Of a DNA stretch of 21,028 bases, positions 1,858 to 20,894 are shown piece by piece. The position numbers were made by a program, and so were the translations under genes. The number at the start of each line of letters is the position of its first letter. Position 1 is the first letter of the stretch. Source of the DNA: Silvanigrellaceae bacterium (GTDB lineage: Bacteria > Bdellovibrionota_B > Oligoflexia > Silvanigrellales > Silvanigrellaceae); assembly GCA_049423385.1 (NCBI GenBank), contig JBMSQQ010000061.1, forward strand, positions 1 to 21,028, written 5' to 3'. The notes under the pieces are model-generated. The model was not told the DNA's origin. It searched no databases and saw nothing but the letters and a program-made list of their open reading frames with translations.

Positions 1858-3672
1858 TCAACAACGCGGCCCACTGTCGTGCCACCCCGAAGCCTGTTTC
1901 TCAAATTCAGGCAAGACGTTTTCACGGGGACCGAAAGATCTGACCTTGCCGTTTTCCATCCACAACACGAAGTCACAATGAGCAAGCGTTGAAAGCCTGT
2001 GCGCAACAAGAATACGGGTCCGCTGGGAGAGCAATTGTGAAAGTGCCCATTCAAGCTTTTGTTCCGAGGCCGGGTCGATGGCACTGGTGGCTTCATCCAT
2101 CACGATGACGGGTGTGTCCTGAACGATGGCGCGCGCCAGACAAACGAGTTGTCGCTGACCAGCTGAAAAATTCGCACCCCGCTCGTGGACGTTTTGATCC
2201 AGACCACCTTCTCGCTGAAGAACGTTCTCGAGACCCAGCGTTGAAAGCACATCGACGAGTTGCGTATCGATGTCTTTGCGTATCGTCAGGTTGTCTCGCA
2301 GGGTGCCGCGGAACAGAGTGGGTTCCTGGGGAATGTATGCCAAAGTGCTGCGCAGCGAATCGAGGTCGTGACCATGGTCTGTTGAAGACAATCCACAAAT
2401 TGAAACTGATCCGGATTCCACAGCGTAGAGTGAAAACAGGGCCTGCACGAGCGAGCTCTTTCCGCTGCCCGTGCGTCCCACGATGCCCAGGCTTTTGCCC
2501 GCAGGAAGAGTAAACGTGACATCATCAAGGACAAGCGGTTTTCCTGGAAAATAGCGCATGGCCAGGTTCTTCACTTCGATTCCCTTGGCCGTTTGCGCGT
2601 TTGAATGTGTGCCAGTGGTCTCCACCGGACGACGTTTGTAATCATCCAGACGTTCTGCACCTGTGAGGGCTTCCTCGAATTGAATCACATATTCAAAATA
2701 CTGCTGTAGCGTGGTTGAAAGTAGCCAGACTTGAGTCAGCACAACCACAACATGACCGACGCTGATGACGTGATTCTGCTGGAGCAAGATTCCGGCTCCA
2801 CCGATGAAAATCAAGCTAAGTGCTGTGACCAGACTCATTTGAAAAGAAAAATGTGTGCTGGTTCGCTGTTGGTTGAGCCGTTCATGTTGAAGGTGACCCG
2901 AAAGAGTGTTGAACCGTCGTGTGAAATGTTCTTGTCGACCATAGACCTTGACGGTGCGGGCTCCTTGGGTGGTCTCGGCAAAGTGGGCAATCGCGGGACC
3001 CCGCGCTGCAGACACCTTTCGACGTGCTGTGCGGATGTTCATTCGGTTCCAGAAGTAAACCGACAAATACGAAGCCCCGACCAACACCGCAGCCGGAATT
3101 CCCCAGACTCCTGAAAGTGCAATAAAGACAAGGCAAAGAATGGCATCGAAACTGAGGCTGATGAATTCACCCATCGGCCCACCCGTCATGCGCAGAACAC
3201 TTTCAAAGTCGCTCGAAAAGCGGGTCAGGGCGCGTCCCACCGGGGTGCGGTCGAAAAAGGTCATCGGAAAGCGGGACACCCTGCGCACAACGGAGTCGTG
3301 CAGTTGGCCTGCAGCACGTGTGCCGATGCGGGCAATGGCGACGCGGAAAACGAGATTCAGCACCAGTGCGCAGGCAACCATGCCAATAATCAAGGCTGCG
3401 AATTGGGCTGAACTCCAATTCGACATGGTTCCGGGAAGGTTGCGGCATTCGGGTCCAACACATTGAGAGTCGATCCAAAGTCCAACGACACTGGCGGAAC
3501 CCACAAGGCAGGTGCGGGCCACGAGTCCCACCAAAAGTGTTGCCGCCAAAGATAACTTCCAAGGTGCATAGGCTTCGCGCAGACTCTGCCACACCTGACT
3601 TTTATACTGCCCCTGAAACTCGATTTCATTTTCCAGATACTTGCTCGTCGGGGGCAAGGACGCATTGATCAT
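1858..3672 (-). CDS. ABC exporter permease/ATP-binding half-transporter, ABCC/MRP C-terminal-half-like (604 aa)
   Basis: TMD with FFDRTPVGRALTRFSSD, Walker A GIVGRTGSGKSSL, Q-loop IPQEPTLFRGTLRDNL, degenerate signature NFSAGQRQLVCLARA, Walker B IVMDEATSAID, H-loop AHRL. Start moved to ATG 3672, which forms an ATGA overlap with the upstream stop and has RBS GAGGTGG. Confidence 0.92.
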   Translation of the reverse strand: MINASLPPTSKYLENEIEFQGQYKSQVWQSLREAYAPWKLSLAATLLVGLVARTCLVGSASVVGLWIDSQCVGPECRNLPGTMSNWSSAQFAALIIGMVACALVLNLVFRVAIARIGTRAAGQLHDSVVRRVSRFPMTFFDRTPVGRALTRFSSDFESVLRMTGGPMGEFISLSFDAILCLVFIALSGVWGIPAAVLVGASYLSVYFWNRMNIRTARRKVSAARGPAIAHFAETTQGARTVKVYGRQEHFTRRFNTLSGHLQHERLNQQRTSTHFSFQMSLVTALSLIFIGGAGILLQQNHVISVGHVVVVLTQVWLLSTTLQQYFEYVIQFEEALTGAERLDDYKRRPVETTGTHSNAQTAKGIEVKNLAMRYFPGKPLVLDDVTFTLPAGKSLGIVGRTGSGKSSLVQALFSLYAVESGSVSICGLSSTDHGHDLDSLRSTLAYIPQEPTLFRGTLRDNLTIRKDIDTQLVDVLSTLGLENVLQREGGLDQNVHERGANFSAGQRQLVCLARAIVQDTPVIVMDEATSAIDPASEQKLEWALSQLLSQRTRILVAHRLSTLAHCDFVLWMENGKVRSFGPRENVLPEFEKQASGWHDSGPRC

Positions 3673-5345
3673 TTTGCCACCTCGGTCTGCAGTCGTCCTT
3701 GATTGAGTGTCCAAACTGCATCGCAGAAAGGAAGAACCGACAAGCGATGCGAGACGAGAAGTCGGGTTTTGTTTTTCCAAAGTCCAAAAAGAAGATTTTC
3801 GACCAGCTGTTTTTCGGTTGCAACATCAACAGCGCTCAAGCAATCGTCGAGCAAGAGCACTTCACGACCCAGACCCAATGCACGTGCGAGGCTGAGCCGC
3901 TGGCGCTGGCCACCGCTCAGATTCACTCCGCGTTCGCCAATTTCGGTGTCGAGTCCTTCGTTCATCAGACTCAGGTCATGGGAAAACGCGCTCAAGTTCA
4001 ATTGGTTGAGCGTGGTAGTGTCGCGGTCGGAAGGAAGGTTGTAATTGAAGCCAACGTTGTCGCGAATATTGGCACTCATGACAAAGCCGTCCTGAGGCAC
4101 AAAACCATAAAAAGCGCGCAGTTGTGAAAGAGGCAATTCAAGCGCATTGCGCCCAAAAATTTCGTAACTTTCAAATTCGCAGGGAATCTCGCGCAGCAAT
4201 GCATGCAGCAAAAGTGTTTTACCGGAACCCACCGGGCCGACAATGGCGACACAGCTTCCGGCCGTCACCTCAAAGTCGAGGTTGTCGAGAATGACCTTGT
4301 TGTTTTGCACGACCCGCAGGCCGCGCACCTTGAGGGCGGGAGCGTCCTTTACCAGCGGTGGCAACATCGGTGAAATATCCGAGCCCGGGTTTGTCTCGCC
4401 CGGTTCGCGTTCCAGCGCCAGATAATTTTCCAGCCGCCGAACCGAAGTCATTGCGTCAAGTGTGTTGACCAAAGCCCATGGAAAACTGCGCAGCGGGCGG
4501 ACCATGAAAACTCCGCACAGCCAAAGTGCGGCCACAAGGCTGCCCGCGCTGACTTCGGGCCGCAAGGCAATGTAGGTCAGGGCAACAGCGTTGAGCATGT
4601 AAGGAGCCACCTGCATCACTCCGTTCATGGCTGAGCCGTTGCTGACCTGTCGCAGTCGGGCGTCTGTTTCGTTGCCACGTGCATTGAAGATTTTTTCTTC
4701 AAATTTTTTGCTCCAACCGAGCATGCGCACAGCGCGCATGTTCTGCAGCCATTCGTTGATGATGGCCACCCTGGCTGCGGTTGCCGCTTTTGAACGGCCA
4801 AACAGGCGAGCCTGTCGGCGTGCCATGAAAAGGCAAATGAACAAATTGGCAAAAGCGGTTGCCAGCAGCGGAGCCGGCGGAAGGTCGTCCATCCACATCA
4901 GGGCAAACGGAAAGCTGATGAGCGGAACTCCTGCGATGGCGATGAGTGGGAGTACTTCTTCAAACAACGAGACGACCGCATTGATGTCTTGTGCATAAAG
5001 ACTCACTGTTTCACCAACGGTGAACTTGAATCGTGATTCACCCCGCAGCGCCAAAGTTTGTTCGTATATTCTTTCAGCGATTTGTCGGTGGACGAGTGTG
5101 CCTTCACGGACAAAAAGCAATTTGCAGAGCGATTGCAGAACTTGGGCCAGAAAGAGTCCCAAGGCTGCGATCAAGAGCAATGGCCAGAGTTTTTGTTCAC
5201 TCGTGTTTGACTTGAGATTGTCGACAAAAGACTTTTGCGCAAACACACCCATGAGTGCTGCAGCAGTGCTCAAGATTCCGAGTGAAAACAGACCGAGCCT
5301 CTTGAGGGGGCGCTGTTTGAGAATGAACGGGAACAGGCGTGCCAT
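3669..5345 (-). CDS. ABC exporter permease/ATP-binding half-transporter, ABCC/MRP N-terminal-half-like (558 aa)
   Basis: TMD, then Walker A AIVGPVGSGKT, signature ERGVNLSGGQRQRLSLARA, degenerate Walker B LLLDDCLSAVD, H-loop SHRL. Start moved to ATG 5345 (GGAG upstream) because the ORF-track start at 5633 overlaps the divergent GH38 gene. Confidence 0.92.
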   Translation of the reverse strand: MARLFPFILKQRPLKRLGLFSLGILSTAAALMGVFAQKSFVDNLKSNTSEQKLWPLLLIAALGLFLAQVLQSLCKLLFVREGTLVHRQIAERIYEQTLALRGESRFKFTVGETVSLYAQDINAVVSLFEEVLPLIAIAGVPLISFPFALMWMDDLPPAPLLATAFANLFICLFMARRQARLFGRSKAATAARVAIINEWLQNMRAVRMLGWSKKFEEKIFNARGNETDARLRQVSNGSAMNGVMQVAPYMLNAVALTYIALRPEVSAGSLVAALWLCGVFMVRPLRSFPWALVNTLDAMTSVRRLENYLALEREPGETNPGSDISPMLPPLVKDAPALKVRGLRVVQNNKVILDNLDFEVTAGSCVAIVGPVGSGKTLLLHALLREIPCEFESYEIFGRNALELPLSQLRAFYGFVPQDGFVMSANIRDNVGFNYNLPSDRDTTTLNQLNLSAFSHDLSLMNEGLDTEIGERGVNLSGGQRQRLSLARALGLGREVLLLDDCLSAVDVATEKQLVENLLFGLWKNKTRLLVSHRLSVLPFCDAVWTLNQGRLQTEVAK

Positions 5346-5430
5346 GTTGCTGCTCCGGCATTGCTCTGGGTTGGCGGTATTCCGACTCGAAAGGTTTACT
5401 CTGAATTGGCTCTCAACCTCAAGGAGGCAT

Positions 5431-5459
5431 TTGACCGTTCGGTTCGCAAATGTTAGCAA
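5431..5459 (+). promoter_or_regulatory. Possible sigma-70 promoter for the sugar operon
   Basis: TTGACC(5431-5436)-N17-TAGCAA(5454-5459) with a TGn extension. The -10 lacks the conserved final T. Confidence 0.3.
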
Positions 5460-5528
5460 ACCCGCCTGAAAACTGTGCAAGAACCAGGCTAATCCAGCCT
5501 CCGCGCGACAACCCGGAGCATGGCAAAC

Positions 5529-8357
5529 ATGAGCAAAACAACTCTGGGAATTGTGGTGCCCCACACACACTGGGACAGGGCGTGGTATTTGCCCTTCCAG
5601 GCTTACCGATTGCGACTTGTCGAAATGATGCAACAGCTCATCGGTTGGATCGAGTCGGGTGCGTTGCCTTTGTTTGTTCTTGATGGACAGACGGTGTTGC
5701 TCGAAGATTATCTTGCCATCCGTCCGCAGGATGAGCAGCGGATTCGTTCGCTTGTTGAAACTGGCAAAATCAAGTTGGGGCCCTGGTACACAATGCCGGA
5801 TTGCTTTCTGGCCCGGCCCGAATCACTCATCCGCAATCTGCAGCGTGGTTTGCAGATGGCAGAAGAAATGGGCGGAGCGTCGCGGGTCGGATACGTGCCC
5901 GATTCCTTCGGCCATTTCGCTCAACTTCCACAAATCCTGGCCGGACTCGGAATCGACTCGTTTCTTTTTATGCGCGGAATGCCTGTCGAGCTTAGGGATA
6001 AAACCGGTGCCGTGTTTGTTTGGCAATCGCCCGATGGATCGCAAGTGCTCTCAACATTCCTGAGGGAAGGATATTTTCCTCTCGGCGCTTTGGGGCAGGA
6101 GAGTTTCCACGGCCGTTATGATGGCCTTGCGGGACGTGTCGAATTGGCACAACAGCGACTCGACGACACCCTGGCCCGGCTTGCACCCTTCCACAAGGAA
6201 CCGGTCGTGGTTTTGCCAGCCGGTGGCGATCACCTTCCAGCGCGTGATGACCTTGCGGGAATCGTGTCTGAGCTCAATGAATCCCGGCAAGACATTGAAT
6301 TGCGATTTGGCGGCTTCGAAGATTATTTGCAGCAGTTGAAGTCCGCGTTGGCTGGCAGACAGCCGGCTATCTACGCTGGCGATCTTCTTGGCCAGGCCGA
6401 CCATCCATTGCTGCGCAACGTTCTTTCTTCGCGCATTGACCTCAAGATTTTGAATCATCAAGCCCAGTCGCTGCTCAGTGGAATCGTCGAGCCATTGTTG
6501 GCTTGGTCCCGCGCGCAAAACATGCCTGTTGTGGATGCAGCACTGCTGCAGACCGCGTGGGATGCGCTTCTCAAGAATCATGCACACGATGATATTTGTG
6601 GGTGCAGTGTGGATGAAGTGCACGTGGACGACGTGCAACGCTTCCGCGAAGTAATCTCGCTTAGCGAGGAAATCATCAACCGGCAAGTGGAACACATTGT
6701 CCAGCAGCGGCTTTCTGCAAACGAAAACGGTCGTTCCGCTCGGGTGTTTTTGTTCAATCCACATCCATGGCCCGTGAATGTGAAGCGCCGGGTGCGCGTC
6801 CTGTTGCACGATGAGGGCGGAGAGTTTTCGCAGGAGTCGGAGGCTCGTGAACTCACGGCAGTCAGTGCGACCGGAAAAACCGTCGAGCTCTTGGTTTTGT
6901 CGACGCGTTGCAAGGATATCCGCAATAGATATTTGGAAACCACATGGGGCCGCAGTTACGAAGTCTTGTTGAACGTTGAAGTGCCTGCATTGGGTTTCGA
7001 GATCGTGACTGTTTCCGAAATTGAACAGCCATTCGTCGAACCGCTGCAGGCGTCGCCGCAAAAGAATGTTCCGCAAGAGTTATTGGAATCCATCCGTTTT
7101 GAACTCGATGCCGATTTGGGTGATGGCTATTCGTTTGGACCATGCCCTGAATTGGGTGTTTCAGTGGCGCGTCTTTTGAGCGCCGAGGCGGATTCAAAAG
7201 ATCCCGATGTCTTTCATTTGAGCTACGAAATCGAAGGCGCAAGTTTTATTCTGCGCGATGAGTTGGGCAAGAAGGGTTTGCAAGATTGCGTCGGCCCACG
7301 CAGCAAAACCACAATCTGCGTGATGGCAAGCCACAATCGTTCCTCGTTCAGCAACAGCGATCCTGCCGGATCCGCTGCAGATGTCGAAGACAGCGCTTGG
7401 GAACTGGCAATTTCCTACACGAACGTATTCAGCAACAGCCGATTGCGATTGGTTTTTGATCCCGGTGTCATTGCATCCGGCAATGGAGCAGGACTTGGTG
7501 AAAGCGTGAAGATATTTGCACATGGTCAAGCACAGTGGAACGAGCTTTCGACTCGTCCCCAAGCGCCTGATCTTTGGCAGGGACCTGTGGCAAAGCCCGC
7601 TTATCCCGGAGAAAAACCATATCCAGTGCACCACGCCAACGATGGCGTGGTCATCTCGGGAACGCGCAGAAGTGCATTTGTGGGTGGTGATGGTCTTCAT
7701 GAATTTGAAGTCGTCGAGACTGCATTGGCGGCCTCTTTGGTTTCGGCGCAATCAGGAGCTGCAGCAGACGAGACGAGAACCGCTAACGCTGCTCCTGCTG
7801 TGGCCGTCACGCTCCACCGCGCAGTTGGTTCGTTGTCGGTGCGCGGAGGGCTCATTCGCTCTTGCCAGGCAGGCCCCCAGCGTCCAACTCCCGATGCTCA
7901 GCTTCTGCGCTGTATCGACCACCGCGTGACTTTGGGTTTGGCGGGTTCGCACCAGCGCGCAATGCGCTTGTTGAGGCAGGGAGTGCATCCGGTGTGGAGC
8001 CAGGAATGTCCGGTGGTGCCAACAATTCTCTCTGCCAATGAAAAGACCACTGCGACGCGCCCTGCGGCGATTGCCTCCAGCATGATTGATATTGGCAGCG
8101 CGCCATTGGAGATGATGTGTTTGCGATCCTCGACGACTGCCGAAGTATTGATTCTGCGGATCGTCAATCCAGCATGCGAGCCAGTCGATGCAGTATTTAA
8201 TTTGGGAGATGCATTCGTTGGCTATGCCCGAGCCACACGCACACAGATCGACGAACAAACGGTCTTGCCTTCGGGTCTGCAATCCATCGCCGAAAATAAA
8301 TTCAAATCACGTTTCAAACCCTTTGAAATTCAGACCTGGAAACTTGAAAAATGTTGA
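5529..8357 (+). CDS. Glycoside hydrolase family 38 alpha-mannosidase (mannosylglycerate hydrolase MngB-like subgroup)
   Basis: Zn-binding PHTHWDRAWY, LDGQT, GPWYTMPD, nucleophile motif GYVPDSFGH, middle-domain NHAHDDICGCSVDEV, C-terminal FKPFEIQTW. No signal peptide. GGAG at 5515-5518 favours ATG 5529 over ATG 5520. Confidence 0.92.
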   Translation: MSKTTLGIVVPHTHWDRAWYLPFQAYRLRLVEMMQQLIGWIESGALPLFVLDGQTVLLEDYLAIRPQDEQRIRSLVETGKIKLGPWYTMPDCFLARPESLIRNLQRGLQMAEEMGGASRVGYVPDSFGHFAQLPQILAGLGIDSFLFMRGMPVELRDKTGAVFVWQSPDGSQVLSTFLREGYFPLGALGQESFHGRYDGLAGRVELAQQRLDDTLARLAPFHKEPVVVLPAGGDHLPARDDLAGIVSELNESRQDIELRFGGFEDYLQQLKSALAGRQPAIYAGDLLGQADHPLLRNVLSSRIDLKILNHQAQSLLSGIVEPLLAWSRAQNMPVVDAALLQTAWDALLKNHAHDDICGCSVDEVHVDDVQRFREVISLSEEIINRQVEHIVQQRLSANENGRSARVFLFNPHPWPVNVKRRVRVLLHDEGGEFSQESEARELTAVSATGKTVELLVLSTRCKDIRNRYLETTWGRSYEVLLNVEVPALGFEIVTVSEIEQPFVEPLQASPQKNVPQELLESIRFELDADLGDGYSFGPCPELGVSVARLLSAEADSKDPDVFHLSYEIEGASFILRDELGKKGLQDCVGPRSKTTICVMASHNRSSFSNSDPAGSAADVEDSAWELAISYTNVFSNSRLRLVFDPGVIASGNGAGLGESVKIFAHGQAQWNELSTRPQAPDLWQGPVAKPAYPGEKPYPVHHANDGVVISGTRRSAFVGGDGLHEFEVVETALAASLVSAQSGAAADETRTANAAPAVAVTLHRAVGSLSVRGGLIRSCQAGPQRPTPDAQLLRCIDHRVTLGLAGSHQRAMRLLRQGVHPVWSQECPVVPTILSANEKTTATRPAAIASSMIDIGSAPLEMMCLRSSTTAEVLILRIVNPACEPVDAVFNLGDAFVGYARATRTQIDEQTVLPSGLQSIAENKFKSRFKPFEIQTWKLEKC

Positions 8358-9265
8358 AAATCACCGGTACATTTCTCGACGAAATCACCCACGACATTCC
8401 ACCGCAGAATTGGGGGCGCCGCGAATGGGCTGCCGACTTCGATGCCATGAAGGCCATCGGCATCGACACCGTCATTCTTATTCGGGCTGGATACCGTGAG
8501 CGTCTGACCTTTGATTCCAAAGTCATCAATCGTCATCGCAAGTGCCTGCCGGCTTATCAGGATCTGGTGGACGTCTTTCTGACCGAGGCGGAACGCTGCG
8601 GAATGAAATTTTTCTTCGGCACTTATGATTCAGGCGAACACTGGATTTCCGGCGACTACAAAAAAGAAAGCGATTTGAACAGGGATTTCTGCAGCGAGGT
8701 GATGGACAAGTACGGTCATCGCAAAGCTTTTGCAGGTTGGTACATCAGTCACGAGATCAATACCTTTGATGCAGGAATGATGCGTGTTTATGATGAGCTT
8801 TCCACCCACCTGCGTTCGCTCAAAAAGATCCCTATCCTCATGTCGCCCTATGTGAAGGGCGTCAAGCAGTTTGGTGCCGAAGCCATTTCGCTCGACAGGC
8901 ACGTCAAGGAATGGGGTTCTGTGTTTCGCGACCTCGAGGGCAAGGTCGACATCGTGGCCTTCCAGGACGGACAAATGTCATTCCTGGAATTGCCTGACTA
9001 CCTGAAGGTCAATCGCGAATTGGCCGTCAAACACGGATTGCAGTGCTGGAGCAACCTCGAGAGTTTTGATCGCGACATGCCGATCAAATTTCCTCCGACC
9101 GACATCCGCAAGCTCATCTACAAGGCCGAACAGGCTTCGGCCGCGGGCGTCGACAAGCTCATCACCTTTGAATTTTCGCATTTCATGAGTCCGAATTCGA
9201 TTTATCCGGCAGCTCATCAATTGTACAAGCGCTACCAGGAATGGATGCGCGGAGAGGAACTGTGA
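8351..9265 (+). CDS. DUF4434/DUF5109-like putative glycoside hydrolase (TIM barrel)
   Basis: N-terminal ITGTFLDEITHDIPPQNWG..W..DF..MK.IGIDTVILIR matches the DUF4434 family as I recall it. Candidate catalytic Glu in GWYISHEIN and WSNLESFD, plus AFQDG and ITFEFSHFMSP. Start overlaps the GH38 stop by 7 nt. Confidence 0.8.
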   Translation: MLKITGTFLDEITHDIPPQNWGRREWAADFDAMKAIGIDTVILIRAGYRERLTFDSKVINRHRKCLPAYQDLVDVFLTEAERCGMKFFFGTYDSGEHWISGDYKKESDLNRDFCSEVMDKYGHRKAFAGWYISHEINTFDAGMMRVYDELSTHLRSLKKIPILMSPYVKGVKQFGAEAISLDRHVKEWGSVFRDLEGKVDIVAFQDGQMSFLELPDYLKVNRELAVKHGLQCWSNLESFDRDMPIKFPPTDIRKLIYKAEQASAAGVDKLITFEFSHFMSPNSIYPAAHQLYKRYQEWMRGEEL

Positions 9266-10461
9266 AAATGCAGTCGGCACCAGCGTCACGTGAAACTCTC
9301 TCTCGCCTTCGCCGTGAATTTGAGAGTGAACTTTTTGAGAATGTGATTCCGTTTTGGGAGAAGCATTCCTGGGACAAAGAAAATGGTGGTTTCTGGAACT
9401 GCCTCGACCAAAGTGGAAAAGTTTTTGATGTGACCAAATATGGTTGGTTGCAAGGGCGCGAAACCTGGTTGTTCAGCAAGCTTTACCGCACGGTTGAAAA
9501 AAAGCCGTTGTGGCTCGAGATGGCACGCAGTGGTGCCGAATTTTTGCGTCACAAGGCACTCACGTCAGACGACCGCATTCCTTTCCGCATGACTGCCGAG
9601 GGCAAGCCGGTTTACGTCCAGCGCAAGATCTTCAGCGAGTGCTTTTACATCATGGCCATGGCGGAATATTCGCGCGCCAGTGGTGACGAAAGTTACATGC
9701 GTGAAGCGGAGCGGATGTTTGCCAAGGTCTGGGAATGGGCCTTTGACTGGCGCAAGGTTGGCAGACCTTCCTATGAAGGCGAAACGCCGCTGCAGTCTTT
9801 GGCTGTCCCGATGATTCTGATGAATCTCATCGAGGAACTCACCGACGGCAATGCAGCGCCTTACCAAAAACAGTTGGCTGATTGCCAAAGTGCCTTTTTG
9901 CGCCACGTTAAGCTCGACGAAAAGCGGGTCTATGAATTCGTTCGTCCCGACGGTTCGTTGTGTTTGGACATCCCCGAGGGCCGGCAGTTGAATCCGGGCC
10001 ATGCCATCGAGGCGGGTTGGTTTTTGCAACACTGGGCACAGCGACAAAAGAACAAAGAGCTTTCAGATCTCGCCATTCAGGTGGTGCGCTGGTCGCATGC
10101 CGAAGGCTGGGACAAAGAGAATGGTGGTTTGTTTTATTTCCTCGACGCCCGTGGCCATTCGCCTGTGCAATTGGAATGGAACATGAAACTCTGGTGGCCA
10201 CATTGCGAAGCACTCTATGCGCACCTGCTCAATTACAGTCTGACAGGCAGCACGATCGACTGGGAGTTCTTCCAGTCAACCAAGGACTACACCTTCGGGC
10301 ATTTTCCAGATCGCACCCATGGTGAATGGTTTGGCTACCTCGACAGGCAAGGGCGGGTGAGCCAGTCGTTCAAGGGTGGCGCATACAAGTGCGCATTTCA
10401 TGTTCCCCGGGCACTGCTGTTGTGCCGCAACTTGTTGGCAAAAATGGAGACAGCACAATGA
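9262..10461 (+). CDS. N-acylglucosamine 2-epimerase (AGE / renin-binding protein family)
   Basis: KYGWLQGR, IFSECFY, catalytic His motif NPGHAIEAGWF, QLEWNMKLWWPHCEA, GEWFGYL, second catalytic His in KGGAYKCAFHVPR. Start is GTG 9262 (GTGA overlap) or ATG 9268, with RBS GGAGAGG at 9251-9257. Confidence 0.93.
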   Translation: MKMQSAPASRETLSRLRREFESELFENVIPFWEKHSWDKENGGFWNCLDQSGKVFDVTKYGWLQGRETWLFSKLYRTVEKKPLWLEMARSGAEFLRHKALTSDDRIPFRMTAEGKPVYVQRKIFSECFYIMAMAEYSRASGDESYMREAERMFAKVWEWAFDWRKVGRPSYEGETPLQSLAVPMILMNLIEELTDGNAAPYQKQLADCQSAFLRHVKLDEKRVYEFVRPDGSLCLDIPEGRQLNPGHAIEAGWFLQHWAQRQKNKELSDLAIQVVRWSHAEGWDKENGGLFYFLDARGHSPVQLEWNMKLWWPHCEALYAHLLNYSLTGSTIDWEFFQSTKDYTFGHFPDRTHGEWFGYLDRQGRVSQSFKGGAYKCAFHVPRALLLCRNLLAKMETAQ

Positions 10462-12332
10462 ACTGGTTCAACGGTACAAATCTTCTCGGCGGGCTCGATT
10501 ACGCTGTTATTGGCGCGTATCTCCTGGGCATCATGATTTTGGGCCTGTGGCTCGAGCGCAAGGCACGCGGCAGTATCGACGCCTACTTTCTCGGCAACCG
10601 CGATTTGCCATGGTGGGCGTTGGGTGCGTCGGGCATGGCCTCCAACACCGATATCGCCGGAACGATGGTCATTACCGCGCTCATCTATTCTTTGGGCGTG
10701 AAAGGATTTTTCATCGAAATCCGCGGCGGGATTGTTCTCATCATGGCATTCTTCATGATTTTCATGGGCAAGTGGACACGCCGAGCGCAGGTGATGACCC
10801 TTGCTGAATGGATGAAACTTCGTTTTGGTGATGGCCGCGAAGGACGCACGGCTCGCCTTATCAGTGCTCTTGCAAATCTTGTCGTTTCGATTTGGATCAT
10901 CAGCTATTTCGCCGTCGGCGGCGGAAAGTTCTTTGGCATGCTGATGGGAATTGATGATCGTGTCGCATCGATTGCACTCATTCTCCTGACGATGGTCTAC
11001 ACAGCTGCAAGTGGTTTTTATGGTGTCGTTTGGACGGATGTCGTGCAGGGTGGGCTTATTCTCGTGGCCGTGCTGTATGTGATTTTCGTCGCAATGACGC
11101 AGGTGAACTTGCCTCCTGAATTCACCGTCTCGGTGCCCGACGGCCATGGTGGATTCGAAGCGGTCCGCACGACCCTCAATGAGTGGGCAAACATTTTGCC
11201 ACCGATGAATCTGGAATTGCCGGGCGAGTATTCGCGCTACAATATTTTCGGCATCACTGTCTTTTTCTATCTGCTGAAGACTTGTATCGAGGGCTTCGCT
11301 GGTGCGGGTGGTTATACAAGCCAACGCTATTTTGCGGCCAAATCCGATCGCGAGGCAGGACTTCTCTCTCTGTTTTGGATTCTTCTTTTGTCGTTCCGTT
11401 GGCCGTTGGTCATGGGGCTTGCGATATTGGGAATTCACCACGGAATCACCACTGGTAAGATCATCGATCCGGAACTTGTTCTGCCGACTGTGCTTGCCGA
11501 GTACATGCCACCGGGCATGAAAGGGCTGGTGATTGCCTGCTTCATGGCGGCGGCGATGTCGACCTTCACTGCGGTGATCAACGCCGGTGCAGCATATTGG
11601 GTGAAAGATATTTACGAAACGTTCATCAATCCCAAGGCTTCTTCCAAAACTCTCGTTTGGCATTCGCGACTTGCAACAGTTGCGATTGTTGTTCTTGGAT
11701 TGGCTTTCAGCCTCGACAGCGTGAACATCAACGACATCTGGGGATGGATCACCATGGCCTTTGGTACGGGCTTGTTTGTTCCACTTTTGTTGCGCTGGTA
11801 CTGGTGGCGCTACAACGGCTACGGATTCGCACTCGGCACGCTGTTTGGAATGCTTTCTGCGGTGCTCATCCGTGTGCTGAAAATTGATTTGCCCGAGTAC
11901 ATGGGATTCGTTGCTCCCAGCGCAATTTCGTTGGTCGGTTGTATTGCCGGCACATACCTCACTGCTCCGACTCCACGCTCCGTTTTGGTGAATTTTGTGA
12001 AGGTCACCCGACCCTTTGGATTTTGGGCCGACATTGCCCAGGAATTGCCCCAGGCTGAGCAGGATGCAATTCGAACCGAAACCCGTCGCGACCTTGCTGC
12101 CGTTGTTTTTGCCGTTCCCTGGCAGCTGGTGCTGTTTCTGCTGGGAATGGTGGTCGTGCTTCGCCAATGGAACGCTTTTGCAGCCCTGTTCCTCGCTTTT
12201 GCCGGACTTTCTGCGGGGCTTTACTGGTTTTGGTTCCGTCATCTCTCTGCCACGGAAGCTCTCCGCGCGAGTGCCAATCTCGGGCAAGATGGACAAGGGG
12301 ATTCGCGGCCCGAGGCAGTGCCGGAATCCTGA
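10458..12332 (+). CDS. Sodium:solute symporter (SSS/SLC5 family), probable sugar importer (624 aa)
   Basis: LDYAVIGAYL, YFLGNRDLPWWALGAS, GFYGVVWTDVVQ, SQRYFAAKSDREA, GLVIACFMAAAMST and many hydrophobic segments. Start moved to ATG 10458 (ATGA overlap with the AGE stop, GGAG at 10446-10449). Confidence 0.93.
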   Translation: MNWFNGTNLLGGLDYAVIGAYLLGIMILGLWLERKARGSIDAYFLGNRDLPWWALGASGMASNTDIAGTMVITALIYSLGVKGFFIEIRGGIVLIMAFFMIFMGKWTRRAQVMTLAEWMKLRFGDGREGRTARLISALANLVVSIWIISYFAVGGGKFFGMLMGIDDRVASIALILLTMVYTAASGFYGVVWTDVVQGGLILVAVLYVIFVAMTQVNLPPEFTVSVPDGHGGFEAVRTTLNEWANILPPMNLELPGEYSRYNIFGITVFFYLLKTCIEGFAGAGGYTSQRYFAAKSDREAGLLSLFWILLLSFRWPLVMGLAILGIHHGITTGKIIDPELVLPTVLAEYMPPGMKGLVIACFMAAAMSTFTAVINAGAAYWVKDIYETFINPKASSKTLVWHSRLATVAIVVLGLAFSLDSVNINDIWGWITMAFGTGLFVPLLLRWYWWRYNGYGFALGTLFGMLSAVLIRVLKIDLPEYMGFVAPSAISLVGCIAGTYLTAPTPRSVLVNFVKVTRPFGFWADIAQELPQAEQDAIRTETRRDLAAVVFAVPWQLVLFLLGMVVVLRQWNAFAALFLAFAGLSAGLYWFWFRHLSATEALRASANLGQDGQGDSRPEAVPES

Positions 12333-12356
12333 AGGTCAGGTCATCGCCTGACTTCA
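12330..12356 (+). terminator. Stem-loop directly at the end of the sugar operon
   Basis: TGAAGGTCAGG-tcatcg-CCTGACTTCA: 10-bp stem with one bulged G, starting at the stop codon. No U-tract. Confidence 0.4.
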
Positions 12357-12372
12357 AGGTTGGGGAAGACAG

Positions 12373-13563
12373 GTGATGACCAGGTTCAACAGCGACAAGC
12401 CATTTCGTTTCATCGGTCCTCTTCGCGGAGCAGCGATGCTGTCTGCAGCGGTCGCTTTTGCCTCTCCGATGGCAGGCTGCACACCTCTTTCCTCCTGGTT
12501 CGCCTCAAGCAAAAAAACAGACAGTTCGAGCAGCGTTGCACCCGAGCGGCCGTTGGTGAGCAATGCGTTTGCTTATGCGCGATATGTGGCAATGAATCTT
12601 GAACCTTCAATTGGCAGCCGCGAGTGGAACGATGAATCCGTCCGCAAAGTCCTTGTTGACCACGCCGTGGCGTCTTGCATCCAGCCCGACGAGGTTTTGG
12701 CCATTCTGAGTGCAGAAATGGGCAATCCGACCGCAACCCCATCTTTGATCGAGGGTAAAATCCAAGGTCCCGAAGTCGACAGGGGGACGAGCGTTGGGTC
12801 TGAAATGGGATCGACCTTTCAGCGCATTTCGTCGTTGGAGGCCCAGCATGGCCGGTGCATGGCAAGTGGACAACGGACGGCTCGAGCGTGTTGTGAGGCC
12901 TTGGCCTTGCCCTTGGCTGTGCTGCCGGAATGGAAATCAATGAGCCAGGAGCAACGGTCTGCCCTGAGCCAGGTTGCGAGGACCGGCGACGCAGATGCCC
13001 GCAGACGAATTTACGAAGCTTGGGGCGAGGGATTTCGATTGCAGGGACTCAAGGCCTGGCTTTCGGTATGTCATGGAACGATTACAAAACAACCTGAAAC
13101 CCTTGAAGAATTCAGAAAATCAGAGTGGTTTCAGGCTGTCGCCACAGTGTCCTGGAAGCGAATGTTGCACCCCCGCTCCCGGGCCAAACAGGGCCCCCGC
13201 AGAATTCAAACCCGCTCCGATGGCCAGGTTTCAATTGCCGAGACTCTCAAACCCGACACCTGCGCAGTGACCGAAACCGAAGTGATTGTTCGGCGGCCCG
13301 ATGGAGCACTGAATTTTTGGGTCTACGACGCTGCTGGAAAAACCATCAACCGTAGCCATTTTCCGGCTCCCGGTCGTTCAGAAGGCAGTCACGACACCAT
13401 TGAAAAGCCGTCTCCGGATGCCTGCATGGGCTGCCACTACGACCTCAAGGCGCGCACCTTTGATGTTCTTTTTCCATCTGCCGACGAATTGAAGCTGGCC
13501 AAGACTTCGAATTTGCCGTTGCTATGTCGATTGGCCGATGAGCCTGTGGCAGAAGACAACTGA
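12373..13563 (+). CDS. Uncharacterised lipoprotein with one C-terminal CxxCH heme-c motif
   Basis: 396-aa ORF filling the gap between neighbours. Hydrophobic segment ending MAG-C36, followed by a Ser-rich linker. CMGCH at 13423-13437. Start GTG 12373 or ATG 12376, with a purine-rich GGGGAAG upstream. Confidence 0.7.
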   Translation: MMTRFNSDKPFRFIGPLRGAAMLSAAVAFASPMAGCTPLSSWFASSKKTDSSSSVAPERPLVSNAFAYARYVAMNLEPSIGSREWNDESVRKVLVDHAVASCIQPDEVLAILSAEMGNPTATPSLIEGKIQGPEVDRGTSVGSEMGSTFQRISSLEAQHGRCMASGQRTARACCEALALPLAVLPEWKSMSQEQRSALSQVARTGDADARRRIYEAWGEGFRLQGLKAWLSVCHGTITKQPETLEEFRKSEWFQAVATVSWKRMLHPRSRAKQGPRRIQTRSDGQVSIAETLKPDTCAVTETEVIVRRPDGALNFWVYDAAGKTINRSHFPAPGRSEGSHDTIEKPSPDACMGCHYDLKARTFDVLFPSADELKLAKTSNLPLLCRLADEPVAEDN

Positions 13564-13673
13564 ATTCGGCCAACCAGCCGAAAACGCCCCAAAAAAATCG
13601 CTCGACAAAATAAAATTTGTTCATTATCGGCACGCAACCCGGTTGTGTTTCGGGGTCAATGGGAGACGACTCG

Positions 13674-15641
13674 ATGAGGTCGGTTTCGAGTAGTATTGTG
13701 TGTCTTGTTGTTGCGTTTTTGATCGCTGCTTGCGGACAGTCCGCGGGGCGGTTCAATTACAACCCGCATGCACACGTTTCGCAGACCCGGAGTGTGGGTT
13801 CAAAAAAGACGGCATGTGTCAGCTTTCAGGGCAATGGCGTTTATTTTTCATCGCACGTGGGTGCACTCATCTCGCTTCTCGAGAATAACTACGAACCTGT
13901 TTTCGCCACTGGCGGATCGAGCGGAGCGATTCTTGCGGGTGTTGCCCGTGCGTTGGTGGAAAATCCAACTCTCTCCAACACCGCCGGATTCAATCCGCAG
14001 GACGCTGCGGTTGTGTTGGCTGCAAGTGCTCCCATCATCGAATCCGTTCTTTTTCTTCCGCGATTCACCACACCACTTTTGCTGCTTGATTCACTTGATG
14101 TCTTTCTCACCGGCTCGAGCCTTGGAGTGCTTTCGGCAGATCCCACAGATGGACTCGTGAATGCCGAATCGATTGTTGGCCAGGCTACCCTGGTGGTGGA
14201 TTTTTATCGAACTGTGGATTTCAGCCAAATCCGTTCGCTGCAAAGTTTGCGAGAGCGCGAAGTCGCACTGGCTCGACTTTGGAAGCAATTTGCAAACACG
14301 GTCGACGTGACTCCCGAAGATGCTGCAGACGCCTTGCTCACCAGCCGTGATACTCTCGAGAGCGAAGGTCGCAATGACCTCGTGACCATCCAGGATCGCA
14401 TCTTCAAGCTGTTCAAAAGCAAGAAAGACACTTTCCACACCAATTGGAAAACCCAACAGGAATCGTGGAACCGCTTGATTGGCGGGAATGCGAAAGTCTT
14501 CGGACTCGATTCGCGCGAGCGCAGACAAGCCATCTTCAAGAAGTTGGTTGAAAAAGTGCGTTCACTGGAAAGCTTTGATGCGCTGTCGGCAACCTTCTCG
14601 GGGCAATTCATGCTGGCCGATCCTGATCGTGTCTATCGCGCTTTCGAGGGATTCGATTCACGCACAAATCGACGCATTGAAATTCCTTCCAACACCATCA
14701 TCCACAGCACGGCCCGCCGCGCAAAAAAGGTGGATGGGGATTGGCGGGAAGCCAAAGGGATTGCGAGCCTGCATCAGGTCTATTTTTCAAGCCCTGGCCA
14801 GGCTGGGCAATTTGCCGAGCAATTGCTCCTTCCCGGGAACAACCCTTTGCGTCCATCGGATGAGAAACTGCAGCCGATCATCCCCACTGAGAGAATCGTG
14901 GTGACATCCCTGCCGCTCGGGCCAACACTTGCGGCAACAACGGGTGAACCCACTGCCTTCCTGCGTTATCCAATCGAAATCGACGTTCCGGCGCGTTTGC
15001 GGCTGGGCTGGACGGGTGTGAATGATGCACTCATTGGCTACGGTGGCTGGCTCGAAAAAGTGTCCCTGGGAACTGCTCGGAAATTCGAAGCCTGTGCTGC
15101 GAAAAATGTTGATGCCTATTTCTTCACGTCCGACGGCGAAGGAGTGAATCGCTTTTCCAAAATGGCACTGTTGGGATTGTTTCTCGATGCTCCGCTGCGC
15201 GGACTTCTGGCCAAGCAAATCGAACGTCCCAGCGACATTCACGCGTTGTTGGCTGGCACATCGGTCAACAGTGGATTTGCAACTGGCGAATTGCAGTCCG
15301 CCTTTGATGAGGCCGTGGGTTCTGCAGATCGCGTCTTTTCGGACAATCGTTCGACGAAAGGACGATTGGGCCACATTCCTGTCAATTTTATTTATGTGAG
15401 TCCTTCGGAGGCAAAAGGCGCGGCGGCGGCAAAGGCCAACGTTGCCATCCGTTCGAATCGTCGTGCAATGGTTTTGGCTGCATACGAATTCACCCGGCGA
15501 ATTATGAGCGAGCAAAAAATGTTGTCTGCAACATTGAATTTCTGGAACCAGGACGGAGATAAAATCAAAGTTCTGCCGCTTGAAAATCCTGCCGACATTC
15601 TCTCTGTCGTGAATCAAACCTTCCCGCGCTTGAGTTACTGA
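13674..15641 (+). CDS. Divergent patatin-like phospholipase-fold lipoprotein (655 aa)
   Basis: ATG 13674 with GGGAG at 13661-13665, lipobox LIAA-C20. Oxyanion-like SFQGNGVYFSSHVGAL, nucleophile elbow GGSSG (GxSxG, 13911-13925), AATTGEPTAF resembling the ASxAxP block, and GYGGW where DGG is expected. Confidence 0.7.
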   Translation: MRSVSSSIVCLVVAFLIAACGQSAGRFNYNPHAHVSQTRSVGSKKTACVSFQGNGVYFSSHVGALISLLENNYEPVFATGGSSGAILAGVARALVENPTLSNTAGFNPQDAAVVLAASAPIIESVLFLPRFTTPLLLLDSLDVFLTGSSLGVLSADPTDGLVNAESIVGQATLVVDFYRTVDFSQIRSLQSLREREVALARLWKQFANTVDVTPEDAADALLTSRDTLESEGRNDLVTIQDRIFKLFKSKKDTFHTNWKTQQESWNRLIGGNAKVFGLDSRERRQAIFKKLVEKVRSLESFDALSATFSGQFMLADPDRVYRAFEGFDSRTNRRIEIPSNTIIHSTARRAKKVDGDWREAKGIASLHQVYFSSPGQAGQFAEQLLLPGNNPLRPSDEKLQPIIPTERIVVTSLPLGPTLAATTGEPTAFLRYPIEIDVPARLRLGWTGVNDALIGYGGWLEKVSLGTARKFEACAAKNVDAYFFTSDGEGVNRFSKMALLGLFLDAPLRGLLAKQIERPSDIHALLAGTSVNSGFATGELQSAFDEAVGSADRVFSDNRSTKGRLGHIPVNFIYVSPSEAKGAAAAKANVAIRSNRRAMVLAAYEFTRRIMSEQKMLSATLNFWNQDGDKIKVLPLENPADILSVVNQTFPRLSY

Positions 15642-15643
15642 GT

Positions 15644-16075
15644 CTACTGGAGTGTGCTGGGACCCGAAATTCCGTCCCGGGACGCGCCCTGCAGGTTTGC
15701 AAGCTTGATGAAGTGCTCTGCTGCGGCGACAAGTTCCTTGACCCTGAATGGTTTTTGAAAAATTGCATCGGCGCCAATAGTGTGGGCATCCTCGCGGGTC
15801 AGGTCGTCATATGCTGTCATGATGAAGATTGCCGGTTGAATTGCATTCCTTTCCGCCGCAATTTTTTTGATGAAGTTCTGGCCCGTGACCCCTGGCATGC
15901 GAATGTCCGTCACAACAAGACTCAATTCCGCGGCGTGTTTCCGCCAAAGCTCCTCGCCCTTCACACCGTTCGATGCCGTCAGCACGCGCCATCCGCACTG
16001 TCCCAAATGCCATCCGAGTTCCTCAAGGATTGAGGATTCATCGTCGACGAGCAAAACCAACGGACGTTGAGACAT
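15644..16075 (-). CDS. Single-domain response regulator (CheY-like receiver)
   Basis: VLLVDDE acidic pocket, phospho-acceptor VVTDIRMP, IMTAY, FQKPF. No output domain. RBS GAGGGAG upstream of ATG 16075. Confidence 0.93.
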   Translation of the reverse strand: MSQRPLVLLVDDESSILEELGWHLGQCGWRVLTASNGVKGEELWRKHAAELSLVVTDIRMPGVTGQNFIKKIAAERNAIQPAIFIMTAYDDLTREDAHTIGADAIFQKPFRVKELVAAAEHFIKLANLQGASRDGISGPSTLQ

Positions 16076-18490: not shown

Positions 18491-18625
18491 GCAATTATTT
18501 GAAAAAATCCTTCAACACAGATTCCCATCGGTGGCAAGTTGGCGCCGAAAATCTCCTGACTCACTGGCCAATTCACAGACCCGCTACGATTGCAGAGCAC
18601 GAAAAAATACGGTGAGGGGGGACGG

Positions 18626-19876
18626 ATGAAAATATCGAGTTGCGCAATTTGGTTGGGTGCAGTGTGTCTTTGGGCCTCCCAGGGAGTGGCTCAGGCATCG
18701 GAATCCGGGAACAAGACATTTCTCAAATTCCGCAACGAGTCTGCGTTGACCCACTACCTGCAACAGAATCCAGGCAGCACTCGAGTGCATCGCGGTTTGA
18801 TGTGGGTGGAAACTTCGTCAATTTCGCGCGGCACTTTCACCGAGAGTGTCCAGCAATCGCTGGGCATCGACACGGTTGAAGAAGATCACGCCGGTTATCG
18901 GATTCCCAAACCAGTGGTGCCAGAGGCAATGCCGGCAAACCTCCCCGGTGCAAAACTTTGGGGCATCAAGAAAATTCAGAGCATGACAGCCTGGAATTCG
19001 ACCCAGGGAAGCGCAGATGTTGTTGTGGCTGTTGTGGATACCGGTATCGATTTCAATCACCCTGCGCTCAGGGAAAATATCTGGATCAACCAGGCCGAGA
19101 AAAATGGTCAACCAGGAGTCGATGACGACGGCAATGGTTATGTCGATGACATTCACGGTGCCGATTTCATTTCGGGCAAACCAACTCCGCTCGACGACGA
19201 AGGACATGGCAGCCACGTGGCAGGCACCATCGCGGGCCGACTTCCTGCGGATGAATTTTACGGAGTTGCACCGGAAGCGCGCCTGATGGCGGTGAAGACC
19301 CACAACACCAAGGGTGAAGGCAGCAAAGCTTCGGTCGTGAAGGGCATTTTGTATGCTGCAGACAACGGTGCGCGGGTTCTGAATTGTTCCTGGGGTGGTG
19401 CACCCGAGGCAGGTGAGTATGACCAAATGCTTTTTGATGCGATCGAATACGCAAACAAAAAAGGAGCAGTGCTGATTGCTTCTGCGGGCAATGCAGCTGC
19501 CAACAACGACACCGGAATGCACTTTCCGTCAAATTACGATTTGCCCGGAATTATTTCTGTGGCTTCGTCGACCAGCACAGACACGCGATCGTATTTTTCC
19601 AATTACGGATCTCGGACAGTCGACCTTGCGGCGCCTGGTTCAAACATCTGGAGCGTCACGGCGGGCGGAAAGAGCTATGAGTATCTTTCTGGAACCAGCA
19701 TGGCATCACCGCACGTTTCAGGTGCTGCAGCGTTGTTGGCCTCCACTCCGGCTGGCCGCAGCATGAGTCCAGCGCAGATCCGCGAAACGCTCATGAACAA
19801 TGTCGAAAAGTTGCAGGACTGGTCGACCCGGGTGATTTCGGGTGGACGCCTGGATGTGTCTTTTATTGGAAGGTGA
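18626..19876 (+). CDS. Secreted subtilisin-like serine protease (peptidase S8) (416 aa)
   Basis: Signal peptide (MKISSCAIWLGAVCLWASQGVAQA) and a short prodomain. Catalytic triad VAVVDTG, HGSHVAGTIAG, GTSMASPHVSG, oxyanion SAGN, acidic insert GVDDDGNGYVDDIHG. RBS GAGGGGGG before ATG 18626. Confidence 0.95.
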   Translation: MKISSCAIWLGAVCLWASQGVAQASESGNKTFLKFRNESALTHYLQQNPGSTRVHRGLMWVETSSISRGTFTESVQQSLGIDTVEEDHAGYRIPKPVVPEAMPANLPGAKLWGIKKIQSMTAWNSTQGSADVVVAVVDTGIDFNHPALRENIWINQAEKNGQPGVDDDGNGYVDDIHGADFISGKPTPLDDEGHGSHVAGTIAGRLPADEFYGVAPEARLMAVKTHNTKGEGSKASVVKGILYAADNGARVLNCSWGGAPEAGEYDQMLFDAIEYANKKGAVLIASAGNAAANNDTGMHFPSNYDLPGIISVASSTSTDTRSYFSNYGSRTVDLAAPGSNIWSVTAGGKSYEYLSGTSMASPHVSGAAALLASTPAGRSMSPAQIRETLMNNVEKLQDWSTRVISGGRLDVSFIGR

Positions 19877-19964: not shown

Positions 19965-20894
19965 TTATTGCGCGTTGCTCGTGGAGGCGGGGGCCTTGTC
20001 GAGCGTGTTGAGAGCTTCGAAGCCTGGCAGCTTGCTCAGGTCGGGCACCACAACAATTTCCACCCGGCGGTTGGCAGCTCGGCCTTCCTTGGTGTCATTT
20101 GCGCGCGCGGGTTTCGCCTCGCCATAGCTGGCGGCGCTGATGCGGGTGTCGGTCATTCCGGCGTCGACCATCTTCTTGACCACCGAAATGGCACGTGCGG
20201 CTGCGAGTTCCCAGTTGCTCGCAAACTTGCCGCCACTGATGGCGACGTTGTCGGTGTGGCCTTCGACCTGGAACTTCTTGTCTGGAATCGACTGCAGCAA
20301 TGCCGCGACTTCCTGCACAGCCTTTTGTCCGTCGGACGTGAGCATGGATGAACCGCTCTTGAACAACAGGTCGCTGTTGAGGGCCACCACCATGCGCCCA
20401 TCAACCATGCGCACGCGCAGCTTGCCGGCGTCGATCATCGACTTGAATTTCAGAAGCAGCTCTTGATACTCGGCAACGCGTTTTTCGGTTTCAGCCTTGT
20501 TCTTTTCCATCTCAGCCAAGGCGGTGCGGAGTTTGTCGTTGTCGGATTGAACCTGGGTCAGCGACCCTTCCAGCATCGACTTGTCTTTGCTGACGGCTGT
20601 TACAGTCTTTTCAAGGCTGGTTGCCTTTTGCTCGAGTGTGGTCGCTTTTTGTTCCAAAGAGCTGGCTTTGGCTTCAAGGTTGGTGGCCTTCTTGCTCAGG
20701 TCCGAGGATTTGGCCGACTCGCTCTTGAGCGAGGTGCTGAGTTCGTTGACTGCCTTGTCGCGCCGCGCGAGTTCCTCTTCGGTCGACTTGAGGCGCGTTT
20801 CAAGCGCTTCGTACTTGGATTTGCTCACGCAGCCGGCGGAGAGCAGGATGAGGCATGCCGTTGACGGCAACAAAATGGATTTGATCTTTTGCAT
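19965..20894 (-). CDS. OmpA/MotB-family peptidoglycan-binding lipoprotein with long coiled coil
   Basis: Lipobox LSAG-C22 followed by VSKSKY, then a long coiled coil. OmpA_C motifs LLFKSGS, QVEGHTDN, NWELAAARA, SYGEAKP, NRRVEI. RBS AAGGGAG. Confidence 0.92.
   Translation of the reverse strand: MQKIKSILLPSTACLILLSAGCVSKSKYEALETRLKSTEEELARRDKAVNELSTSLKSESAKSSDLSKKATNLEAKASSLEQKATTLEQKATSLEKTVTAVSKDKSMLEGSLTQVQSDNDKLRTALAEMEKNKAETEKRVAEYQELLLKFKSMIDAGKLRVRMVDGRMVVALNSDLLFKSGSSMLTSDGQKAVQEVAALLQSIPDKKFQVEGHTDNVAISGGKFASNWELAAARAISVVKKMVDAGMTDTRISAASYGEAKPARANDTKEGRAANRRVEIVVVPDLSKLPGFEALNTLDKAPASTSNAQ
20607..20690 (-). repeat. Four tandem 21-bp (7-aa) degenerate repeats within the coiled coil
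   Basis: KATNLEA-KASSLEQ-KATTLEQ-KATSLEK, preceded by the more degenerate KSSDLSK. Confidence 0.8.

Follow-up and report, generated by a model that had tools for sequence, protein, structure and literature searches.

We analyzed a 21,028-nucleotide stretch of DNA from a Silvanigrellaceae bacterium (contig JBMSQQ010000061.1, positions 1 to 21,028; hereafter, the window), focusing on a gene that encodes a member of DUF4434, a protein family without an assigned function, although the structure of one member has been solved and Escherichia coli K-12 encodes another. The DUF4434 gene occupies the second position in a run of four closely packed genes on the plus strand, in the order GH38-DUF4434-AGE-symporter (GH, glycoside hydrolase family; AGE, N-acylglucosamine 2-epimerase):

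5520 to 8357, plus strand: GH38 α-mannosidase of 945 amino acids without a signal peptide, first gene of the operon (PF01074, 1.1e-36; PF09261; PF17677)
8351 to 9265, plus strand: DUF4434 protein of 304 amino acids, a candidate retaining glycosidase with putative acid/base E135 and putative nucleophile E237 (PF14488, match to 4H41, AlphaFold2 model, fold searches, residue conservation)
9268 to 10461, plus strand: AGE, likely start ATG 9268, longest open reading frame (ORF) from 9241 (PF07221, 1.7e-44)
10458 to 12332, plus strand: sodium:solute symporter (SSF; PF00474, 1.9e-42)

The GH38 stop codon overlaps the DUF4434 ATG by 7 nucleotides, and the DUF4434 stop codon (9263-9265) is followed 2 nucleotides on by the ATG at 9268 in the AGE frame, which bears out the direct coupling of DUF4434 to an AGE proposed in the initial annotation of this DNA. 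The AGE stop codon in turn overlaps the symporter ATG at 10458 (ATGA); we placed this start from the junction sequence and from tblastn of the orthologue in locus L059, which aligned to 10458-12329. A scan of 5200-13700 gave no usable signal: promoter-like sites numbered 4 (3.8 expected from shuffles) and terminator-like sites 17 (11.2 expected). The nearest solved structures of the GH38 protein are the bacterial GH38s 3LVT/5KBP and 2WYH. The epimerase matches porcine AGE (1FP3, E 8.2e-98) and the cyanobacterial AGEs 6F04 (5e-94) and 2GZ6 (2e-91) far better than the cellobiose 2-epimerases (7e-24 or weaker), and this proximity to characterized AGEs marks it, at the level of sequence, as a genuine N-acylglucosamine 2-epimerase. 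Its score against the NCBIfam model NF052547 is 375 bits, short of the equivalog cutoff of 600. The symporter matches SGLT1/2, vSGLT, and SiaT about equally.

The DUF4434 ORF begins with ATG at 8351, and its product matches PF14488 over the full length of the profile (residues 4-285 on positions 1-283 of 283; E 1.8e-69 in Pfam). With 234.8 bits against a gathering cutoff of 30, the match lies far beyond what chance would give, and it confirms that this is the compact, DUF4434-like protein of 304 residues initially described. PF14488 is the only Pfam family reported for the protein at E-values up to 0.01, no model matched in a scan of the NCBIfam library, and the family itself comprises 6079 matches at E up to 0.001. 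Because the N terminus (MLKITGTF) is itself the first β-strand, leaving no space for a signal peptide, the protein is predicted to be cytoplasmic.

An AlphaFold2 model based on 27 window-type sequences of 30-65% identity (mean predicted local distance difference test score [pLDDT] 96.2; predicted template modeling score 0.93) forms a (β/α)8 barrel, the triosephosphate isomerase (TIM) barrel that a structure prediction had been expected to reveal. Its strands span residues 4-9, 40-43, 86-90, 127-131, 162-164, 201-205, 231-235, and 269-272 and alternate with helices. As first proposed from the sequence, two glutamates follow strands 4 and 7: E135, which ends the motif WYISHE (residues 130-135), lies just after β4, and E237, which ends WSNLE (residues 233-237), lies just after β7. 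These residues are kept in 133 and 130, respectively, of 134 aligned family members. Other near-invariant positions in the same 134 sequences are D15, N20, R45, E116, D200, Q205, D206, W233, N235, T272, and E274; the invariant residues include neither a conserved His/Asp metal set nor a Schiff-base Lys. A class I aldolase substituting for NanA, which we also considered, is ruled out by the lack of an invariant Lys. In the family profile, the GWYxxxE segment falls on the N-E acid/base motif of two glycosidases, a GH2 β-glucuronidase (E 0.0025) and a GH42 β-galactosidase, at E-values that are weak overall (0.0025-0.024). The candidate nucleophile E237 is assigned to the end of β7 by strand position.

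The only close relative of solved structure is 4H41 (BT_0435 of Bacteroides thetaiotaomicron; phmmer E 2.4e-86), which matches the window model with a Foldseek template modeling score of 0.95 at 48% identity and a VIA Z score of 44. BT_0435 is a structural-genomics entry that shares family and fold with the window protein, and its motifs WYISGE and WTNAE correspond to WYISHE and WSNLE. It differs at its N terminus, where an extension of ≈30 residues presumably marks it for export; the window protein begins at β1. The entry is labeled “putative alpha-L-fucosidase,” a GH29 assignment that we found to be unsupported: the DUF4434 protein has no GH29 match in Pfam, and the DUF4434 profile touches the putative GH29-like chain 3EYP at positions 33-126 only (E 0.0088).

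Below 4H41, the VIA scores level off into a plateau at Z 17-21, made up of TIM-barrel glycosidases from clan GH-A and elsewhere, in the order Cwp19/GHL10 (21.2), GH164 β-mannosidase (19.9), and GH5 mannanase (19.5), followed by GH14, GH42, GH2, GH35, and GH1; the best 50 matches are all glycosidases or their close relatives. DUF4434 resembles the retaining β-glycosidases of clan GH-A (GH164 Bs164, GH5 mannanases/mannosidases, GH42, GH2) in its (β/α)8 barrel and in the carboxylates after β4 and β7. It differs from them in sharing only 8-14% identity at Z 17-21, in lacking an Asn before the acid/base, and in its distinctive conserved set, from D15 and N20 through Q205-D206 to T272-E274, and no Pfam model of these families matches the protein. 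The likeness to clan GH-A suggested at the outset holds for the barrel, for the glutamate after β4 and, by strand placement, for E237 after β7; the canonical Asn is absent. With 4H41 as its sole close relative of solved structure, a flat GH-A plateau beyond it, and the GH29 label unsupported, DUF4434 is a family of its own with a GH-A-like architecture.

Because the window pairs DUF4434 with an AGE, we surveyed the genomic surroundings of the family. Loci were drawn from 138 sources (57 from genome contigs, 80 from metagenome contigs, and the window), of which 134 hold a recognizable DUF4434 ORF and four were dropped. At 80% identity these loci form 58 lineages; because some records occur in both collections, lineage counts are reported next to locus counts. 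AGE genes were counted by direct tblastn, since one neighbor cluster, “unk424,” proved to be an artifact corresponding to the antisense ORF of AGE. In 56 of the 134 loci, representing 21 of 58 lineages, an AGE lies within 300 nucleotides of DUF4434, and the two genes share a strand in every one of the 56. When only loci flanked by at least 3 kb on each side are counted, this spacing is seen in 28 of 64 (13 of 30 lineages), and extending the distance to 6 kb raises these counts to 34 of 64 and 16 of 30. Moreover, 17 homologues exceed 532 amino acids in length, and 7 of these are single proteins with an N-terminal DUF4434 domain and a C-terminal AGE domain, an architecture confirmed in four of four tested.

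Gene content in Bacteroidota follows the same pattern. Across 301 genomes, an AGE is present in 13 of 13 with a strong full-length DUF4434 match versus 77 of 288 without one (p 8e-8 by a one-sided Fisher test with no phylogenetic correction; a weak partial match in genome G053 was left out). The distance between the two genes in these 13 genomes is at most 212 nucleotides in five and ≈1.6-1.7 kb in two, where a sugar transporter lies between them; the remainder are 14-18 kb apart in two genomes, 811 kb apart in one, and on separate contigs in three. The coupling of DUF4434 to AGE is thus general. In the genome with the widest spacing, G297, the AGE at ≈1142-1144 kb of contig C1 stands directly beside a DHDPS-family gene, an arrangement with the appearance of a canonical lyase-epimerase pair for sialic acid, and DUF4434 is located between an SSF gene and an FAD oxidoreductase gene.

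A second context for the family comes from E. coli K-12, where ybcH (b0567) is the third gene of nfrB-nfrA-ybcH. YbcH matches PF14488 over its full length (E 1.5e-69, 235 bits) and represents a distant branch, ≈20% identical to the window protein; a hidden Markov model of the window subfamily aligns it only around the β4 motif. When profiles of 27 window-type and 21 YbcH-type sequences were compared, the two matched at 96% probability (E 3.6e-9) over β1-β6, with GWYISHE placed on GWYISAE and AFQDG on VWVQDG. The model of the YbcH branch (pLDDT 90.6) is likewise an eight-stranded barrel in which an invariant glutamate, E144, ends β4 and another, E245, ends β7, and the residue before the β4 Glu in this branch is Ala or Ile. 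Its best match in the PDB is 4H41. The two proteins differ in their settings: YbcH is periplasmic and membrane-anchored and belongs to a biosynthetic/export operon with no AGE partner, whereas the window protein is cytoplasmic and belongs to a catabolic operon.

Two studies of the Nfr system describe NfrB as a GT2 synthase that uses WecB-made UDP-N-acetylmannosamine (UDP-ManNAc) for a ManNAc-based polymer, as concluded from genetics (PMC8669469, PMC8669472). DUF4434 thus occurs in two independent contexts, beside an epimerase whose substrate is ManNAc and in the operon of a ManNAc-polymer synthase, and both lead to ManNAc. The membership of YbcH in the family, complete with the Glu pair, is independent, circumstantial support for ManNAc release. 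As a rule, the operons of exopolysaccharides also encode a periplasmic glycanase that acts on the polymer they produce. GT2 enzymes are inverting, so the linkages would be β-ManNAc. If the family does cleave ManNAc linkages, YbcH would supply the hydrolase so far missing for the exopolysaccharide of the Nfr system, the receptor of phage N4.

YbcH also raises the question of whether DUF4434 proteins are hydrolases at all. The family might instead comprise sugar-binding scaffolds, periplasmic or cytoplasmic, or metal-dependent TIM-barrel isomerases, epimerases, or lyases. YbcH is called a putative scaffold with a non-essential role in PMC8669469, and the sugar epimerase TIM barrels UlaE and psicose 3-epimerase appear at low rank among the matches of the YbcH model. 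We nevertheless regard a non-hydrolytic function as very unlikely, given that both distant branches keep a glutamate at each of the two positions canonical for GH-A, that glycosidases and their close relatives make up all of the best 50 VIA matches of the window model, and that neither a metal set nor a Schiff-base Lys is found among the invariant residues.

The best-supported reading, which we advance tentatively and with slightly less than even confidence, is that the window DUF4434 protein is a predicted ManNAc-releasing glycosidase. The symporter would import a small amino-sugar glycoside, from which GH38 would remove any α-mannosyl residue, and the cytoplasmic DUF4434 protein would then cleave the ManNAc glycosidic bond, most simply a β-ManNAc linkage, to free N-acetylmannosamine. 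In a retaining mechanism as in clan GH-A, E135 would act as the acid/base and E237 as the nucleophile. The AGE would epimerize the freed ManNAc to N-acetylglucosamine (GlcNAc), and N-acetyltransferases, where present, would re-acetylate de-N-acetylated residues. The enzymes of GH18, GH20, and GH84 rely on anchimeric assistance by the 2-acetamido group of the substrate. In β-ManNAc, this group is cis to the leaving group and cannot assist, so an enzyme nucleophile should be needed; a Glu/Glu pair, rather than the Asp-Glu pair of GH20 type, would accordingly suit β-ManNAc cleavage, and the lack of an Asn ahead of the acid/base would be in keeping with a substrate that has no equatorial 2-hydroxyl. 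For DUF4434 itself we infer hydrolytic activity, the retaining mechanism, ManNAc specificity, the anomeric configuration, and the order of steps.

Other genes recur around DUF4434 as well. Within 6 kb, counted as loci and lineages, we observed the following neighbors:

AAC(3)-like N-acetyltransferase (PF02522): 20 loci, 8 lineages (within 300 nucleotides in 15 loci)
GHL10: 18 loci, 8 lineages
SSF: 25 loci, 7 lineages
GH38: 29 loci, 6 lineages
PF12831 FAD oxidoreductase: 10 loci, 6 lineages
MFS: 9 loci, 4 lineages
DUF5009 (HGSNAT-like): 8 loci, 4 lineages
GDSL esterase: 9 loci, 3 lineages
GH92: 5 loci, 3 lineages
NagB/PIG-L fusion: 3 loci, 3 lineages
GH20: 2 loci, 2 lineages
ROK: 6 loci, 2 lineages

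Five of these recurrent partners act or probably act on amino sugars, namely the AAC(3)-like N-acetyltransferase, the HGSNAT-like DUF5009, the NagB/PIG-L fusion, GH20, and ROK. In PMC12423673, DUF5009 proteins group with HGSNAT, a lysosomal N-acetyltransferase, and their own activity is so far a prediction. In Chloroflexota, the acetyltransferase gene is often upstream of and overlapping DUF4434, and it is probably a catabolic sugar-amine acetyltransferase rather than a resistance gene; in five loci of this phylum (L033, L035, L043, L054, and L055), it overlaps the DUF4434 start. Besides AGE, DUF4434 is fused to PF12831 FAD oxidoreductase, GH92, SGNH esterase, and sugar transporter domains; the PF12831 fusions, together with PF12831 neighbors in six lineages, are a hint that the pathway may include an oxidative step. 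Two proteins, P0275 and P0284, carry the fusion to the FAD-dependent oxidoreductase. The common theme of the neighbors is an amino-sugar glycan that also bears mannose, O-acetyl groups, and some free amines.

Bacteroidota polysaccharide utilization loci carry the same set of partners, and one adds a NAGPA-type phosphodiester glycosidase. Three of them (L143, L144, and L145, in genomes G245, G253, and G257) consist almost wholly of uncharacterized families and contain two to three GHL10 genes, a PF12831 FAD oxidoreductase, DUF5009, a GDSL esterase, DUF4434, and DUF5018, as well as GH92, SusC/D, ROK, and AGE. The extra gene of L143 encodes a GHL10-DUF4985-NAGPA phosphodiester glycosidase.

The α-mannosidase partners bear on a different assignment, in which DUF4434 would be a β-mannosidase for the Man-β1,4-GlcNAc core of N-glycans that acts after GH38 has trimmed the α-mannoses, with AGE then acting on the released GlcNAc. 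GH5_18 enzymes work beside GH38 enzymes in Bifidobacterium, providing an analogy. In the window, GH38 is translationally coupled upstream of DUF4434. Across the family, 8 of 30 well-flanked lineages have a GH38 or GH92 gene within 6 kb, with one GH92 fusion in addition, and many of the nearest folds outside the family are β-mannosidases or mannanases (GH164, GH5, and the GH5_18 enzyme BlMan5B). The plateau at Z 17-21 does not separate GH-A specificities, however, and a β-mannosidase would leave unexplained the N-acetyltransferase partners, the family member in the Nfr exopolysaccharide operon, and the standing of AGE as dominant neighbor and fusion partner, as GlcNAc is usable without epimerization. 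We consider this assignment unlikely.

The acetyltransferases, for their part, are the starting point for a hydrolase of another amino-sugar linkage, for example, an α- or β-linked GlcNAc or glucosamine (GlcN) glycoside that is N-acetylated first and yields GlcNAc. By analogy with lysosomal HGSNAT followed by NAGLU, an example substrate would be a Man-α1,4-GlcN-R core of the glycosylphosphatidylinositol (GPI) or glycosylinositolphosphoceramide (GIPC) type, which the α-mannosidase partners would suit. Consistent with such a route are the AAC(3)-like N-acetyltransferases (20 loci in 8 lineages within 6 kb, and 15 loci within 300 nucleotides), the HGSNAT-like DUF5009 in 8 loci of 4 lineages, and the NagB/PIG-L fusion in 3 lineages. 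Yet AGE would be superfluous with GlcNAc as the product, the YbcH context would not be linked, and the loci in which both AGE and the acetyltransferase stand beside DUF4434 (L074 and L084) fit a sequence from mannosamine through ManNAc to GlcNAc at least equally well. Our confidence in this alternative is correspondingly low.

Because AGE-type epimerases also serve sialic acid catabolism, we examined the gene content of the window genome, which is 90.6% complete and encodes one DUF4434 protein, one ROK kinase, and a single DHDPS-family protein, presumably DapA. No NanA above cutoff and no BNR sialidase were found in this genome; together with the single DHDPS-family gene, this argues that the window AGE is not fed by a sialate lyase. 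In tblastn searches of the same genome, E. coli queries detected no NfrA, NfrB, or YbcH, so the cassette does not recycle a self-made Nfr polymer, and neighbor proteins from the collected loci detected no N-acetyltransferase, GH92, GH20, DUF5009, or GDSL esterase. Counts of PF00701 members are one in the window genome and in G301, two in G245, and three each in G297, G253, and G145. The NanA model TIGR00683 gave no matches over the 301 Bacteroidota genomes, a result that is uninformative since only E. coli matched among the controls. Bacteroidota nan clusters combine a lyase, an AGE-type epimerase (NanE), and a transporter. The DUF4434 loci are like these clusters in placing AGE beside a sugar transporter, with an esterase, GH20, ROK, and SusC/D nearby in some, and unlike them in having no lyase or sialidase among the recurrent neighbors and a DUF4434 protein without the invariant Lys of class I aldolases.

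Several observations weigh against ManNAc release. In the proposed active site, the Asn that precedes the acid/base Glu in clan GH-A is absent, and position 134, immediately before E135, is variable (H in 70 sequences, Q in 34, M in 14, F in 6, G in 5, and T in 3). The profile-profile alignment with the YbcH branch stops before β7, leaving the equivalence of E237 and E245 to strand position only. Among the well-flanked lineages, 14 of 30 have no AGE within 6 kb, and in genome G297 the AGE adjoins a DHDPS-family lyase, 811 kb from DUF4434. The association with GH38 and GH92 implies α-mannose in the substrate, and a pure ManNAc substrate would leave these α-mannosidases unexplained. The window genome contains no NagA, NagB, or BadF-type kinase, so the fate of GlcNAc is unexplained. 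The Nfr studies (PMC8669469, PMC8669472) deduce from genetics that the polymer is made of ManNAc, and they treat YbcH as a non-essential periplasmic auxiliary or “putative scaffold”; the word “hydrolase” occurs zero times in their texts. The openly accessible literature that we searched assigns no function to DUF4434, 4H41/BT_0435, or YbcH, makes no mention of an N-acetylmannosaminidase, and offers nothing pertinent on AGE combined with GH38 and a symporter.

Were DUF4434 to cleave ManNAc linkages, it would add a new family to the glycoside hydrolases and, with it, a new activity, and it would supply a physiological source of substrate for the cyanobacterial and environmental AGE epimerases. 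A wider proposal, which we hold to be possible though doubtful in its entirety, is that DUF4434 is a new family of N-acetylmannosaminidases with two arms: a periplasmic branch, that of YbcH, acting as the missing glycanase of the cyclic di-GMP-controlled Nfr polymer and N4 receptor, and a cytoplasmic or polysaccharide-utilization-locus branch that, in concert with AGE, salvages ManNAc glycans in metagenome-assembled genomes (MAGs) labeled as at least eight phyla, having moved between phyla as a four-gene cassette.

The closest relatives come from freshwater MAGs labeled Silvanigrellaceae/Oligoflexia. The GH38-DUF4434-AGE-SSF cassette recurs in MAGs labeled Pirellulales/Planctomycetota (L011-L018 and L023), where the flanking genes differ. 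Amino acid identities to these cassettes are 88-89% for DUF4434, 81-85% for AGE, 80-83% for SSF, and 58-61% for GH38. The recurrence suggests either transfer between phyla or mis-binning.

Downstream of the operon are two plus-strand ORFs that match no Pfam or NCBIfam model and are conserved only in Silvanigrellaceae-type relatives, one of 396 amino acids at 12373-13563 and one of 674 amino acids at 13617-15641. The ESM Atlas offers a patatin-like phospholipase lead for the 674-residue product (score 0.93) and none for the 396-residue product, with no link to glycans. On the other side, divergent from the operon, tandem ABC exporter half-transporters resembling MsbA or type I secretion components are encoded on the minus strand at 1858-3780 and 3669-5633, and these genes are conserved upstream in the closest relatives. 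The window also contains three genes unrelated to the DUF4434 finding: a stand-alone response regulator (15644-16075, minus strand), a subtilase with mycosin-like similarity (18590-19876, plus strand), and an OmpA/MotB-like protein with a coiled-coil N terminus (19965-20894, minus strand).

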